Below, one piece after another: positions 26,759 through 40,457 of a stretch of DNA of 59,749 nt. Under the pieces are notes generated by a model. It saw only the letters and a list, made by a program, of their open reading frames with translations. It searched no databases and was not told the origin of the DNA. Location: contig JANNQV010000045.1 in NCBI GenBank assembly GCA_031400935.1, positions 62,001 through 121,749 of the forward strand, written 5' to 3'. Every line of letters starts with the position of its first letter. The stretch's first letter is position 1. A program made the position numbers and the translations under genes. This stretch comes from Armatimonadota bacterium. Lineage in GTDB: Bacteria; Armatimonadota; Fimbriimonadia; Fimbriimonadales; Fimbriimonadaceae.

Positions 26759-27802
26759 TTGCGAATTCTTCAAGTTGGAAGCGGTTGCGGTGGATGGGGT
26801 GGGATTGAAAGATATATCGCTTATTTGACTAACGGGCTAATTGATCGTGGGCACGAGGTTCATGTGGCTTGCCCTTCAGGCTCTCAACTGGACATTCGGT
26901 GCGCAGGAATTCACCATGACATCGCCCAGCCCTATCTCTATAGGCCAACCGCGGTTTTGCCAATGAACCGCCTAGTAAAAGAGATTGAGTTTGATTTGAT
27001 CCATTTTCATTATCGAAAAGATTTCATTCTTCCAGCTTGGGCAACAATGATGGGAACAAAGGCTCCCCGAATCATGACACGACACGTCCCGAGCACTTGG
27101 AACGTGTGGAAATCATCCAACTATCGCAGGACATTTCATCACTTCATTTCAGTTTCCGAAGCCGTACGGAAGGATTTGATCGAGACTAGCAGAATTCCTG
27201 CCTCCATGATAACGACAGCCCATGCTGGCTGTCCACCAATAACAACAGAGTTCAAGAGAACAGAATCAAACAAATTCAGAGTAGGTTATTTCGGCAGACT
27301 TGTAAATGTGAAAGGCGTTCATGTCTTGGTCGAATCGTCAAAGCAGCTCCCGGAGGGCATCGAAGTCTTGATCTACGGTTCCGGTCCCCAGGAAGCTGAA
27401 CTTCGCTTGCAAGCCGAAGGCACTTGTTGCCGGTTCATGGGGCAAGTTGAAGACGTATTTGAAGCAATGGCGAATGTGGATGTCGTTGTGATTCCGAGCT
27501 TATGGCTCGAAGCATTTCCATTTTCGGCTCTGGAAGCCATGGCAGTTGGCAAACCAATCATTGCAACTGATTCAGGCGGACTTCCCGAACAAGTTCGAGA
27601 TGGAGAGACAGGTTTGCTTGTTGTAAGAGGCGACGCTATCGCATTGGCTGAAGCTATTGGGTCGCTTTGTAATGAACGCGAAAAGTGTAAACAAATGGGA
27701 AACAAAGCGAGGGAGATTCAACGTACTGAATTCACAGTAGAAAAATTTGCGGAGCGAGTTGAGTCTGTATACGAATCGGTTTTGGCACATAGGAACTCAT
27801 GA
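26759..27802 (+). CDS. Glycosyltransferase family 4
   Basis: GGIERY, GRL...KG, PS..EAF....LEAMA.GKP..A...GG..E. Confidence 0.92.
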   Translation: MRILQVGSGCGGWGGIERYIAYLTNGLIDRGHEVHVACPSGSQLDIRCAGIHHDIAQPYLYRPTAVLPMNRLVKEIEFDLIHFHYRKDFILPAWATMMGTKAPRIMTRHVPSTWNVWKSSNYRRTFHHFISVSEAVRKDLIETSRIPASMITTAHAGCPPITTEFKRTESNKFRVGYFGRLVNVKGVHVLVESSKQLPEGIEVLIYGSGPQEAELRLQAEGTCCRFMGQVEDVFEAMANVDVVVIPSLWLEAFPFSALEAMAVGKPIIATDSGGLPEQVRDGETGLLVVRGDAIALAEAIGSLCNEREKCKQMGNKAREIQRTEFTVEKFAERVESVYESVLAHRNS

Positions 27803-29742
27803 GCCACTCATGCCATTATGTTAGGAATTGTATGACGCGGATTTTTAGATTGTTCCTTCCGATATTGATGGGCCTAGTTTCGGCGGGTGCGTTTGCCCAG
27901 AATTTGCATTTCAAATGGAGTGGGGAAGTCGTGCCGAACGACGCCCGGCCAGGCGAAGCAGCGCAACTCGTTTTGACTCTTGAACTTGAAAAGGGATGGC
28001 ATACATACCAAATCGGGCAAACAGGCGGGCCGCTTGCACTAGATATCAGGTTACAACCTGGGCCAGCCGAAGAAATTGACAAGATTGTCGTCCCGCCACC
28101 ATTGAAAAAGTTTGACACCGCATTTAAGGTTGAAGTTGGCTACTACGAAAATGTAGCTAAATTTGCGATTCCGATCCGGCTAGCCGAGGGAATTCAAGGC
28201 CAGCAAATCGCAAAAATTGACATCAAGACGCAAGTTTGCAATGAAGTTGGTTGCGATCGCCCGCGTACACAAACCTTAGAAGTGCCATTCAAAGTTTCAC
28301 CTGGCGATGTGCGAGTCGAGCGAATCGCTGCAATGACCAAGCTCCCCGTACAGCCCCCTCAATCTCAATCATCAGAGACCAATGGGACAGAAGAGACAGC
28401 AGGGACAAAGGGGACGACGGAAGATGCTCCTGTTGGTGGGGGTTCGTTGTGGGGGATCTTTGTTGCCGGATTTATCGGCGGCCTCTTTGCATTGCTTACA
28501 CCTTGCGTTTTCCCAATGATTCCTGTTACGATTAGCTTCTTTTCGAAGCAGGGCGGTGATCGGAGATCGCAGATTCGGGCGGCAATTTTGTACTGCCTTG
28601 GGATCATTGTGTCCTTCACTGTTCTTGGATTGCTCGTTACGATTTTGCTCGGAAAGAACGGCACATACATTCTTGCAAACAATCTTTGGGTGAATGGCGG
28701 CCTCGTTTTGCTTTTCGTCGTTCTGGCACTTAGCTTATTTGGAGTTTTTGAACTACTCATTCCAAGCGGAACTCTAACAAAAATTTCGGGAATGACTCAG
28801 CGCGGAGGCGCCGTTGCAGGCCCTCTTCTAATGGGGCTGACGTTTGCCCTGACAAGCTTTACTTGCACCGTGCCAATAGTTGGCGGATTACTTGCCGGAG
28901 CGGCGGCAGGAGATCGCCTTTATCCGGCTCTAGGAATGATAGGCTTTAGCTCTGCGCTTGCCTTGCCGTTTTTGCTCTTGGCATTGTTTCCAAGTTTGAT
29001 GAAATCGTTGCCAAAATCAGGCGCGTGGATGGTTACGGCAAAGACATTTATGGGTTTTCTGGAATTAGCAGCGGCTCTGAAATTCCTTTCCAACATAGAC
29101 CTCGTTTTACGCCTTGGAATTCTAACGCGTCCCGTCTTTCTCGCAATATGGACAGCCATTTTTCTGCTCGCAGGAATTCACCTTCTCGGTTGGATTAAAT
29201 TGCCTCACGACGGGCCTTCGCCAATTGGACCCATGAGAAGGCTTTTTGCCATAGCTTCAATCGCAGGAGCCTGGTTCTGCCTGAGCGCCATGAACGGAGC
29301 AAGCCTTGGCACGATTACAGGCCTTTTGCCACCTTCCGACTATCCGTTTAGAGGCAAAACTGGCTCAGCCGAAAGAGTAGGGAAGGCGACTTGGATTGTT
29401 AATGATTTTCCGAAAGCACTTGCCGAAGCGAAGTCAACAGGCAAGCCGATTCTTGTTGATTTCACGGGCTATACCTGAACCAATTGTCGAGATATGGAGG
29501 AGAACGTGTTTCACCTCCCCGAAGTGCAAAACGAGTTCAAAAAGTACGTGCTAGTTCAGCTTTATGTTGAAGATAAAGACCATGCAGACATCCAAGATCG
29601 CTTGATCAAGCGTTCCGACTTGCCTTCTTATGTTGCAGTGAAATCGGACGGAGAAACGGTGATCAAGTTTGTCGGCTATGAAACAAGGCCGAACATAAGG
29701 GTTTCCAGTTTTGTAAAGTTCTTGTCGGAATCGGCGGAGTGA
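27799..29742 (+). CDS. dsbD: DsbD thiol:disulfide interchange protein with in-frame TGA (candidate selenocysteine, UxxC)
   Basis: Alpha domain (CNEVGC), TM beta domain (LLTPCVFPMIP, FTCTVP), gamma domain VDFTGYT-TGA-TNCRDMEENVF. The ORFs 27799..29478 and 29494..29742 are in the same frame. Start may be 27832. Confidence 0.8.
29496..29518 (+). promoter_or_regulatory. Candidate bacterial SECIS hairpin
   Basis: GGAGG-A-GAA-CGTGT-TTC-A-CCTCC; G in the second loop position; 26 nt between the TGA (29476-29478) and the loop. Confidence 0.55.
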
Positions 29743-29944
29743 GGAGAATTTTGGATTTTTGATTGTGGATTTTGGATTGGGACAGGATTTGGAGTGCGGT
29801 GTGCAGAGTGCGGAGTGTGGAGAACGGAACGCGGAGACCGGAGCGACGAGATCCAGCCGCCAACTGGCAACCGCTAACTGCAAACCAATAACAACCAACA
29901 ACCAACAACTGACAACCGCTAACTGCCAATTGCTAACCGCCAAC
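29743..29944. repeat. Bipartite heptamer tract between convergent genes
   Basis: gattttg- and gagtgcg-type units, followed by ctaactg-, caaccaa- and ctaaccg-type units. Confidence 0.85.
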
Positions 29945-29949
29945 ATCCC

Positions 29950-31530: not shown

Positions 31531-31628
31531 TTGGTGTCCTGTTCTTCGAAAAGTGCGAATGCAACATTATGCAGCGAAAAGCGTTTAGATTCCACGCTTC
31601 GATGGTGTTCCAAGGGTACAACGTTCGA

Positions 31629-32444
31629 ATGGCGATTTGTTTAGGACTGGTTTTGCTCAGCAGTTTGGGATTCAATGCGGCACAAGAGCCGACTCCGAAA
31701 GTTGACCGTTCAGGCGAACCTGCATTGATAAAACTGATGGATTCGTTGTCAAAACGAAAGCTTGCCCATTATTCCATTTCGACGTTTAGCCGCAATTCTG
31801 AAGAGGATATGTATTTTGAGGGCAACCACTTTGATGTCGTGTTTGGCGGACCCAAGAGAGTTCGAATTACCGCTTCCAGCATGTGGGGCGATGGGCGGAT
31901 TTACATTTCCGACGGCAAAACTCTTTTGCTGGATTACCTTGACATTTCGCAAGGCGTATTACTGAAAGATGTCGGAAAGAGTCTGATGGCGAGCGATCCT
32001 GACCTTGACGTTAAGGGTTCTTACGGGTTGGTCACGACAATGCTTTTCCAAGGTCCTGAAGCGATTGAGAAGGTTGCTTCAAAGGCGTCATCAATAATCT
32101 ACTACTCTACTGGCGGTCCTTCAATAATTTCAATTCAGAATTCGGAATTTGGAAATCTCAAAATCTTTTATCGAGAAACCAAATCTGGTCCAGTTGTGAT
32201 TCGGTGCGAATACGATAATTGGGATTACAAACAAACTCAACACGAAAAATATCCGGAATGGGTTGACGCTCCAGAAAAGGGAACGATGGATGTTGAGGTC
32301 TGCCGATTTGATTCTAAGAAGAAGGTCGCGAAGAACGCATTCTCAACTCTGCCTGCCAAAAACTTGACAATTAGAGATGAACGGAAGAAAGACAAAAAGC
32401 AAATCCAAGTCCAACGAGTCTCTACTAATCTGAAGCCCAATTGA
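31629..32444 (+). CDS. Exported hypothetical protein (LolA-like fold possible)
   Basis: Signal-like N-terminus; P..VRI....WGDGRIYISDGKTL pattern. ORF track start is 31569. Confidence 0.5.
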   Translation: MAICLGLVLLSSLGFNAAQEPTPKVDRSGEPALIKLMDSLSKRKLAHYSISTFSRNSEEDMYFEGNHFDVVFGGPKRVRITASSMWGDGRIYISDGKTLLLDYLDISQGVLLKDVGKSLMASDPDLDVKGSYGLVTTMLFQGPEAIEKVASKASSIIYYSTGGPSIISIQNSEFGNLKIFYRETKSGPVVIRCEYDNWDYKQTQHEKYPEWVDAPEKGTMDVEVCRFDSKKKVAKNAFSTLPAKNLTIRDERKKDKKQIQVQRVSTNLKPN

Positions 32445-39461: not shown

Positions 39462-40457
39462 TTAGACTTCGTCTTCAAAAACTGGCTCAGGAATATGGTC
39501 TTGACTCCCGGATTCAATATCATTTGCCATGAGCCGGGCAAATTCTCGAAGCTGGGGTTCAGAGTCCATTTTCGCAACATCTTGCAAAGCTGATACAACA
39601 TCGGCTCGCATATCGTTGTCCCATTCGACAACATGAAACAGCCCATGAATAGCCGAGCGCCTTCCGTATTTGCTTGGGGCTTGCAGACAATCCAGCAAAG
39701 CCGGTCCGCCGTTTTTGTCTGGAAGGTGTCCGCCTAAAACGACGCCAGCCTTGTATATTGTTCGGGCAAAATCATCGGGTGCGCCTTTGATTAAATCTGT
39801 TATCGCAGCAATCGCCCCAACTTCGTCGGCCTCGGTTTCGCAAAAAGATGGTAAATCCTCGAACATATCCAGCACGCACCACTGCGCCGATCGGCGATGC
39901 TCGTGCAAATGATCACCGATGATTTCAACAAGGGCTGGTAGAAAGTCACGTTTGTTTGGAAGAGTTTCCAAAACCGTGTGCGCGTCGTTCGCCACATCAC
40001 GGTCTGGACAATAGAGCAGCTTTAGCAATTGGAGCGGCGCAAGTTCATTCAAATGGCCTTGAAACCGACGGTCTAATCCTAAGCAATTTGCAATTTGCAT
40101 TTGCCGTTTGAATAGCGGATCAACCACTTTACGCAACTTGACAAGCATATCTTCAGTAGTCGGTCCCAATGCTTCGACCCAAAGCTCGGAACATCTTCCA
40201 AATACTCCATAAGTAGTATTGGCAAGTTCAATTTTGAAACTTTCACCTTGCAGATCAGCCTCGATTTCGCCTCGCCAATCGCTTTCATGAAGCAGGTAGT
40301 TGTAGCTGATCGGATGCGGCGGCCAATGAAAGGGGATTCTATGTCCGGTAGGGAACACATTCGAAGTGCCGGATGCGGCAGCATAGGCATCAATGAATTC
40401 TCGAATTGATGCTGCAAGGCTCTGGGCAACTTTCTCATCCCGCGGTATCGAGGGCAT
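39462..40457 (-). CDS. Hypothetical protein (HEAT-like C-terminal repeats)
   Basis: 331-aa ORF with helical repeats (RRSAQWCVL, RRSAIHGL). Confidence 0.65.
   Translation of the reverse strand: MPSIPRDEKVAQSLAASIREFIDAYAAASGTSNVFPTGHRIPFHWPPHPISYNYLLHESDWRGEIEADLQGESFKIELANTTYGVFGRCSELWVEALGPTTEDMLVKLRKVVDPLFKRQMQIANCLGLDRRFQGHLNELAPLQLLKLLYCPDRDVANDAHTVLETLPNKRDFLPALVEIIGDHLHEHRRSAQWCVLDMFEDLPSFCETEADEVGAIAAITDLIKGAPDDFARTIYKAGVVLGGHLPDKNGGPALLDCLQAPSKYGRRSAIHGLFHVVEWDNDMRADVVSALQDVAKMDSEPQLREFARLMANDIESGSQDHIPEPVFEDEV

Follow-up and report, generated by a model that had tools for sequence, protein, structure and literature searches.

Whether a TGA triplet within a gene for a membrane disulfide reductase is a stop or a codon for selenocysteine (Sec, U) is the question raised by one locus of an Armatimonadota bacterium of the family Fimbriimonadaceae (assembly GCA_031400935.1). 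The whole stretch of DNA that was analysed, here called the window, comprises 59,749 nucleotides (nt) of contig JANNQV010000045.1 (C45:62001-121749) and belongs to a genome, G000, of 67 contigs and 95.6% completeness. A listing of open reading frames (ORFs) presents the locus as two pieces, an ORF of 559 amino acids (aa) at 27799-29478, which ends at TGA 29476-29478, and an 82-aa ORF in the same frame at 29494-29742. When the first TGA is read through, the frame stays open for 87 further codons until a second TGA at 29740-29742, giving a 647-aa product in which all three Pfam domains score above their cut-offs. A first-pass annotation, made from the DNA letters, had proposed a single Sec-containing DsbD that gene callers would split in two, and the ORF listing does split it in exactly this way. 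The checks for Sec machinery, for a UCA tRNA, for a Cys-aligned TGA retained in close relatives, for a conserved hairpin sequence and for independent contigs with the TGA all came out in favour of that proposal. The evidence assembled below makes it very probable that the two pieces are one gene for a DsbD-type membrane thiol:disulfide reductase of 647 (or 636) residues, with UGA codon 560 read as Sec.

Domain organisation of the read-through product

The features of the gene, in window coordinates, are the following.

27799..29742, forward strand: whole proposed Sec-DsbD gene, 647 codons plus terminal TGA
27934..28281, forward strand: alpha domain, DsbD_N, residues 46-161 (Pfam PF11412, 46.7 bits, cut-off 25)
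28237-28254, forward strand: alpha Cys pair C147/C152 in CNEVGC, intact
28453..29094, forward strand: beta (transmembrane) domain, DsbD_TM, residues 219-432 (Pfam PF02683, 109.3 bits; matches the solved CcdA structure 5vkv)
28504-28506, forward strand: beta Cys C236 in TPCVFP, intact
28864-28866, forward strand: beta Cys C356 in FTCTVP, intact
29392..29640, forward strand: gamma domain, Thioredoxin_7, residues 532-614 (Pfam PF13899, 47.2 bits)
29476..29487, forward strand: U-T-N-C redox motif, with UGA 29476-29478 as proposed Sec560 and the resolving Cys563 at 29485-29487
29476..29519, forward strand: nucleotide-frozen stretch of 44 nt, identical in three clade members except at 29513
29496..29518, forward strand: hairpin GGAGG-A-GAA-CGUGU-UUC-A-CCUCC resembling a selenocysteine insertion sequence (SECIS), with a 5-bp lower stem, an A.A 1x1 internal loop and a 3-bp upper stem
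29740..29742, forward strand: true terminator TGA, TAA in the sister species

The alpha, beta and gamma domains characteristic of DsbD thus occur in a single polypeptide, and each carries a redox pair (C147/C152, C236/C356 and U560/C563, the U by virtue of the TGA). The TGA stands in the context VDFTGYT-U-TNC-RDMEENVF, and the frame that follows it completes a recognisable thioredoxin fold. The gamma domain can be aligned to solved chains, namely E. coli DsbD gamma (1uc7 and 2fwe, E 7.6e-6) and 3f9u (E 4.9e-10); residue 560 is aligned with the first Cys of CVAC in the E. coli chains and with the C of GYGCVNC in 3f9u. The enterobacterial type of the protein, as modelled by NCBIfam NF001419, is matched with only 171.1 bits against a cut-off of 330, and the window protein is a distant DsbD-type protein outside the enterobacterial subfamily.

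The start of the protein may lie slightly further downstream than the ORF listing places it. At 27799 the ATG and the stop codon of the glycosyltransferase ORF that precedes the gene overlap (ATGA), and 4 of the 11 residues that a start there would add differ from those of the sister species. The real start may be Met12 at 27832, which opens the signal-peptide-like sequence MTRIFRLFLPILMGLVSAGAFA and would give a product of 636 aa.

Conservation of the UGA and selection on both sides of it

The position occupied by the TGA is a Cys position in almost all relatives. In a tblastn search of 30 loci with residues 500-647, the aligned residue is Cys in 28 of the 28 that lie outside the genus, within the motif FTG-x-x-C-x-N-C in 19 of them. 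Because of this alignment, the coincidence of the TGA with a catalytic Cys is far beyond chance. Among 41 related genomes, the TGA is shared only by G001, a sister species of the same genus with 90% aa identity. It is also kept by a third clade member, the metagenome contig L096; for G001 and L096 the nucleotide identity is 76-83%. Two further sets of Logan contigs have it as well, X3 from another sample of the same study, with 16 differences over 150 nt, and X4 from a different study. One possible source run contains the identical sequence at a depth of 25. A further contig, X5, was rejected as a TGA carrier since it is a Cys-type relative that diverges after 29477.

The comparison of G000 with G001, in which 300 of 648 codons differ, shows how both sides of the TGA have evolved. 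The 559 codons upstream hold 215 synonymous and 56 nonsynonymous differences, and the 88 codons downstream hold 24 synonymous differences (one of them the terminal stop, TGA versus TAA) and 5 nonsynonymous ones. The excess of synonymous changes downstream means that this part of the frame is translated and under purifying selection. The pattern expected of a selenoprotein, an in-frame UGA aligned with Cys and conserved flanks on both sides, is therefore seen at this locus.

The hairpin and constraint on the mRNA 3' of the UGA

The first-pass annotation had also described a hairpin in the coding sequence with a G early in its loop, 26 nt after the UGA, and this structure is present as described: the UGA-to-loop spacing is 26 nt and the loop, CGUGU, has G as its second base, followed by U. 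Bacterial SECIS (bSECIS) elements have been defined by a loop of 3-9 nt, a stem of 4-16 bp and a G in the first two loop positions, together with a spacing of 16-37 nt and a minimum free energy of -7.5 kcal/mol or lower (PMC13188914, legend of Fig. 2). In a simplified implementation of these published criteria, made for this study and distinct from bSECISearch, the hairpin falls within all limits, with its 5-nt loop, 8 bp with one mismatch, 26-nt spacing and -8.0 kcal/mol.

More telling than the fold is the nucleotide sequence itself. From 29476 to 29519, G000, G001 and L096 are identical except at 29513, while 17-24% of the bases in the flanks differ among the three, and X3 and X4 likewise show only the A>C difference at 29513. 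This base is A (His565) in the window and C (Pro) in G001, L096, X3 and X4; it is the unpaired base of the 1x1 internal loop, and by this comparison the A allele of the window looks like the derived one. To separate such freezing from protein conservation, only amino-acid-conserved codons with synonymous alternatives were counted, and the counts were compared by Fisher test. In the clade of the window, none of the 11 such codons at positions +1 to +13 varies synonymously, whereas 27 of 39 do so in the flanks (p 3.6e-5). When five Sec clades are pooled, the corresponding counts are 11/54 and 78/167 (p 3.9e-4); five Cys clades show no freeze (32/43 against 59/94 in flanks, p 0.94). Constraint at the RNA level, beyond that imposed by the protein, is consequently found at this site.

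Comparable structures occur in other Sec genes. The nine sequences of a Gemmataceae-like clade share a 7-bp stem that lies at the same distance from the UGA and is paired in 63 of 63 cells, with the loop NGUGU and one compensatory GC-to-AU double change that arose from two synonymous substitutions. Paralogous Sec genes of G000 itself have similar hairpins, one (L117) with the loop CGUGAU and another (L114) with an A.A mismatch and a loop that starts at the same distance.

Selenocysteine machinery and other candidate selenoproteins

All four genes required of a bacterial selenoprotein producer, selA, selB, selC and selD, are present in G000. The tRNA-Sec (selC) scores 66.1 bits on the Rfam model, is called SeC by ARAGORN and has the anticodon UCA, the discriminator G (G73) and an encoded CCA end. 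The selB, selA and selD genes score 360, 452 and 354 bits, and like the tRNA they exceed their curated cut-offs. The selD gene has an in-frame TGA of its own (...VSCSG-U-ASKLGP), and at least five other thioredoxin-fold genes of G000 carry TGA at the redox Cys, in the contexts TSG-U-T (a peroxiredoxin, Prx), W-U-GPC (twice), W-U-GAC and W-U-GWC. The positions of these five further genes and of the Sec-type selD are listed here by contig.

C51:77773-78150
C15:14341-14697
C62:57525-57863
C25:65882-66118
C27:218721-218978
C15:155711-156616

The predicted selenoproteome of G000 thus amounts to at least seven candidate genes. With selA found in 30 of 41 related genomes and Sec variants in Armatimonadota already published (PMC13582414), Sec use is common in this lineage, contrary to the first-pass annotation, which had taken the lineage as one not usually thought of as using Sec.

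Outside the window, at C54:48148-48237 (L007:1501-1590), lies a further tRNA-like gene of 90 nt, to which the Rfam tRNA-Sec model gives 38 bits. Its acceptor stem and variable arm are long, its T stem is shortened, and it ends in discriminator G and an encoded CCA. The anticodon loop CUUUACA gives the anticodon UUA, which would read the stop codon UAA, and there is no ARAGORN call. The gene looks like an allo-tRNA or ochre-suppressor candidate.

Points against selenocysteine and alternative readings of the UGA

Several results weigh against the Sec reading or take away from its support, and most of them concern the hairpin. Among Cys forms, 9 of 19 pass the bSECIS filter, as compared with 22 of 29 distinct Sec forms, which makes the filter a poor discriminator and the hairpin, taken alone, weak evidence. 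The 23-nt hairpin at -8.0 kcal/mol has a z-score of -1.7, with 11 of 200 shuffles folding as well; its 50-nt context has a z-score of -0.11, and the stability of the 54 nt after the UGA is no greater than that of 500 synonymous recodings (z +0.56). Nor does the folding energy differ between 10 Sec and 19 Cys forms (Mann-Whitney p 0.37). The stability of the hairpin was dropped as evidence, since neither dinucleotide shuffles, synonymous recodings nor the Sec-versus-Cys comparison gave any separation; the hairpin is real but thermodynamically unexceptional. Its sequence is conserved in the clade, but across the three sequences the stem is invariant, which amounts to conservation with no covariation, and the covariation in the Gemmataceae-like clade is weak, being reached by 53 of 500 shuffles. 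In the freeze test, divergence is greater among the Cys control groups than among the Sec groups, so that the control is somewhat weaker than its numbers suggest. The incorporation of selenium at residue 560 is itself a prediction from the DNA, and no RNA run containing this stretch was among the runs listed.

The same side of the balance includes the best-surviving alternative, which the first-pass annotation had already named. Here the UGA would be recoded with SelB and the hairpin, and Cys would be inserted by a tRNA-Sec-like tRNA-Cys (tRNA-ReC or SelC*), either always or under selenium scarcity. The mechanism has been published: tRNA-ReC-like tRNAs were reported in 5 of 5 Armatimonadota genomes with UXXU hydrogenases, in which UGA may be Cys (PMC13582414). 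A conserved UGA followed by a frozen SECIS would look identical under Cys insertion, and at 95.6% completeness the absence of such a tRNA from G000 is not proven. The published rule demands a tRNA of at least 80 nt with a UCA or GCA anticodon and the discriminator U, which decodes SECIS-linked UGA as Cys (PMC13582414), and no tRNA in the assembly, 95.6% complete as it is, satisfies it among the 47 tRNAs called by ARAGORN and the matches to the Rfam tRNA-Sec model. The sole UCA tRNA has G73 and CCA and is a canonical SelC by the same rule (PMC13582414), the sole GCA tRNA has 76 nt and is too short, and the other long matches to the Rfam model are Ser, Leu and Tyr tRNAs and the one UUA allo-like tRNA, with no further UCA or GCA candidate. 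As selA and a Sec-type selD are present besides, insertion of Cys in place of Sec is improbable.

If the UGA instead terminated translation, the gene would encode an alpha-beta protein devoid of gamma, and the downstream frame would be either a remnant in decay or a small ORF in its own right at 29494-29742. This agrees with the standard ORF listing, which yields exactly two pieces, and with the existence of DsbD relatives that have no fused gamma domain, such as the CcdA-type match (5vkv). A dead remnant would not be expected to keep frozen synonymous sites after the UGA, however, nor does termination fit the purifying selection on the downstream codons or the retention of the TGA by independent lineages and by three clade members that have diverged from one another. 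The 82-aa ORF on its own would moreover be deprived of the first redox residue and the preceding strand. Termination is accordingly very unlikely.

An error of sequencing or assembly, a nonsense mutation of very recent date, or genome-wide reassignment of TGA to an amino acid (code 4 or 25) is scarcely credible as an explanation. Although the genome is an assembly of 67 contigs, the contig at depth 25 is identical, contigs of another sample and another study as well as the diverged G001 and L096 carry the TGA, and TGA also ends both the DsbD gene and the glycosyltransferase ORF upstream of it, which makes TGA an ordinary stop here and not a generally reassigned codon.

Distribution and origin of the Sec form

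Sec at this site of DsbD is found beyond the clade of the window. A search of representative genomes with the DNA pattern FTG-x-x-TGA-T-N-C-R/S gave 31 places, of which 9 are open DsbD-type frames; the other 22 are full of stops and were rejected as chance matches. One of the nine, L078, matches G001 over ~240 residues, and the remaining eight belong to Planctomycetota or are unclassified. DsbD_TM and Thioredoxin_7 are found in all eight of these (one at only 20 bits) and DsbD_N in six; of these genomes, the five that were tested all contain selA. With a stricter pattern, 22 metagenome contigs were retrieved, each of which (22/22) has an open UxxC frame.

Within the phylum, homologues with an E-value no worse than 1e-40 occur in 162 of 401 sampled Armatimonadota genomes. 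Of the 150 homologue rows listed, four were flagged as containing one TGA: G000, two genomes of another family and one false alarm, G092, a Cys form in which the TGA precedes the start codon. Sec-type DsbD genes of another Armatimonadota family, L119 and L120 (genomes G370 and G232), have the motif FTGHT-U-QNCRDVEF; they were missed by the first DNA pattern because the residue after U is Q.

A quick IQ-TREE maximum-likelihood tree of 29 proteins places 21 Armatimonadota rows in one group (SH-aLRT 99), with G000 and G001 inside it, adjoining a Cys form (96), and requires at least two changes of state. The tree shows that the Sec form of the window arose from a Cys ancestor within the Armatimonadota, independently of the Planctomycetota forms.

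Comparison with known systems

With E. coli DsbD (1uc7, 2fwe, 1vrs), the window protein has in common the alpha-beta-gamma order, the alpha Cys pair and the two membrane Cys residues. The first Cys of CVAC, with which residue 560 is aligned, is the attacking Cys461 of the E. coli protein (PMC2631958). The two differ in that the window protein has Sec for the attacking Cys, a gamma domain of the Thioredoxin_7 type with FTGxxUTNCR, and a CxxxxC spacing of the alpha Cys pair.

Among bacterial selenoproteins, those with a thioredoxin fold and a UxxC motif form the commonest class. One relevant domain model is cd02953, which we take to be the DsbD-gamma model of CDD. A UxxC selenoprotein family called 'thiol:disulfide interchange protein' was catalogued by Zhang in 2006 (PMC1794560), Table 2 of the GOS study of 2008 contains 'Trx-like 2' under cd02953 with 22 sequences (PMC2398784), and Table 1 of a 2026 review places the thiol:disulfide interchange family under PF13098 (PMC13188914). 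This family shares with the window protein the thioredoxin fold, the UxxC motif and many Cys homologues. It is assigned to PF13098 and known from Geobacter, Syntrophus and marine reads; the window domain, by contrast, scores 47 bits with PF13899 and only 23.8 bits with PF13098 (cut-off 27). The Sec-DsbD of the window is very probably real, yet it is not an unprecedented kind of selenoprotein, the UxxC family having been catalogued already.

The Sec-DsbD genes of Planctomycetota and of the other Armatimonadota family (L049-L076, L119, L120) combine DsbD_TM and Thioredoxin_7 with a TGA that occupies the matching CxxC position (8 of 8), DsbD_N being recognised in 6 of 8, and have a hairpin 14-21 nt after the UGA. 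The registers and sequences of these hairpins differ from those of the window, and the proteins are only distantly related, the window gene nesting among Armatimonadota Cys forms (99 and 96 SH-aLRT). The only entry named 'DsbD' in the review is TsoB, a rhodanese/DsbD fusion (PMC13188914). TsoB (NF045694) has the DsbD membrane domain in common with the window protein, which scores 154.3 bits against the cut-off of 805 and so falls outside this family; a second selenoprotein model with a Thioredoxin_7 domain is matched with 42 bits against a cut-off of 300. Unlike these two, the window protein has no rhodanese or PDZ domain, and its Sec motif is UxxC where the review gives UxxxxU and CxxU for TsoB and the second model (PMC13188914). 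In the accessible full-text literature that joins DsbD with selenoprotein or selenocysteine, supplements excluded, no description of a three-domain Sec-DsbD was found.

Gene neighbourhood and other features of the window

The gene is preceded by the glycosyltransferase ORF and followed by a convergent acyl-CoA dehydrogenase gene; no redox partner genes were found within about 10 kb of it. The intergenic region between the DsbD and acyl-CoA dehydrogenase genes (29745-29947) is a mosaic of short tandem repeats, ATTTTGG x4.4, GGAGTGC x4.6, AACAACC x4 and several 14-nt units. Within the gene, the longest run that is identical between G000 and G001 covers 44 nt at 28819-28862, just before the Cys of FTCTVP, and exceeds the run after the UGA. 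Elsewhere in the window, the ORFs at 31569-32444 (forward strand, 291 aa) and 39462-40457 (reverse strand, 331 aa) match no Pfam family at an E-value of 1e-5 or lower.

Proposed mechanism

If UGA 560 is decoded as Sec, this would be done by SelB and Sec-tRNA(Sec), directed by the stem-loop in the coding sequence 17-40 nt downstream. By homology with E. coli DsbD, electrons would then pass from cytoplasmic thioredoxin to C236/C356 in the membrane, from there to U560/C563 of the periplasmic gamma domain, and onward to C147/C152 of the alpha domain and to exported clients. The membrane topology presupposed here, and any kinetic benefit that Sec may bring, would follow from the same comparison, and the transfer of electrons from thioredoxin to periplasmic clients by the window protein is likewise proposed by analogy. 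In this scheme Sec560 would replace the attacking residue equivalent to Cys461.

As a selenol is largely ionised at neutral pH, Sec560 would be a permanently reactive nucleophile. In E. coli DsbD, the target of Cys461 is the alpha-domain disulfide Cys103-Cys109. The pKa of Cys461 is 10.5 in the isolated gamma domain and changes on docking, which has been proposed as a guard against non-specific reoxidation (PMC2631958).

A more speculative idea, which we regard as possible though rather doubtful, is that the mRNA of the DsbD gamma domain carries a latent SECIS, with which a single change from TGY to TGA would be readable at once in a Sec-using cell. In roughly one Cys-type gene in two, the conserved M-E-x-x-V/M-F codons just after the CxxC would already fold into a hairpin at SECIS distance. 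This would account for the conversion of the same Cys to Sec on at least three separate occasions, in two families of Armatimonadota and in Planctomycetota. Such a conversion would at the same time abolish the high-pKa gate, that is, the pKa of 10.5 that holds Cys461 unreactive until the alpha domain docks (PMC2631958).

Significance

On the Sec reading, the annotation of this locus is corrected to one 647-aa selenoprotein in place of a truncated DsbD and an orphan ORF. As the protein reaches the cut-off of no NCBIfam model, automatic pipelines are likely to continue splitting the gene. The Armatimonadota would join the lineages with Sec at the attacking position of DsbD, and repeated conversion of Cys to Sec is documented at one site. 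E. coli DsbD controls the same residue by a high thiol pKa, so that natural Sec/Cys pairs of DsbD would allow a clean experimental test of the benefit of selenium in a disulfide relay. Should the idea of a latent SECIS and an ungated Sec prove true, these bacteria would hold a constitutively deprotonated selenolate in the periplasm and follow a different control logic for exporting reducing power.

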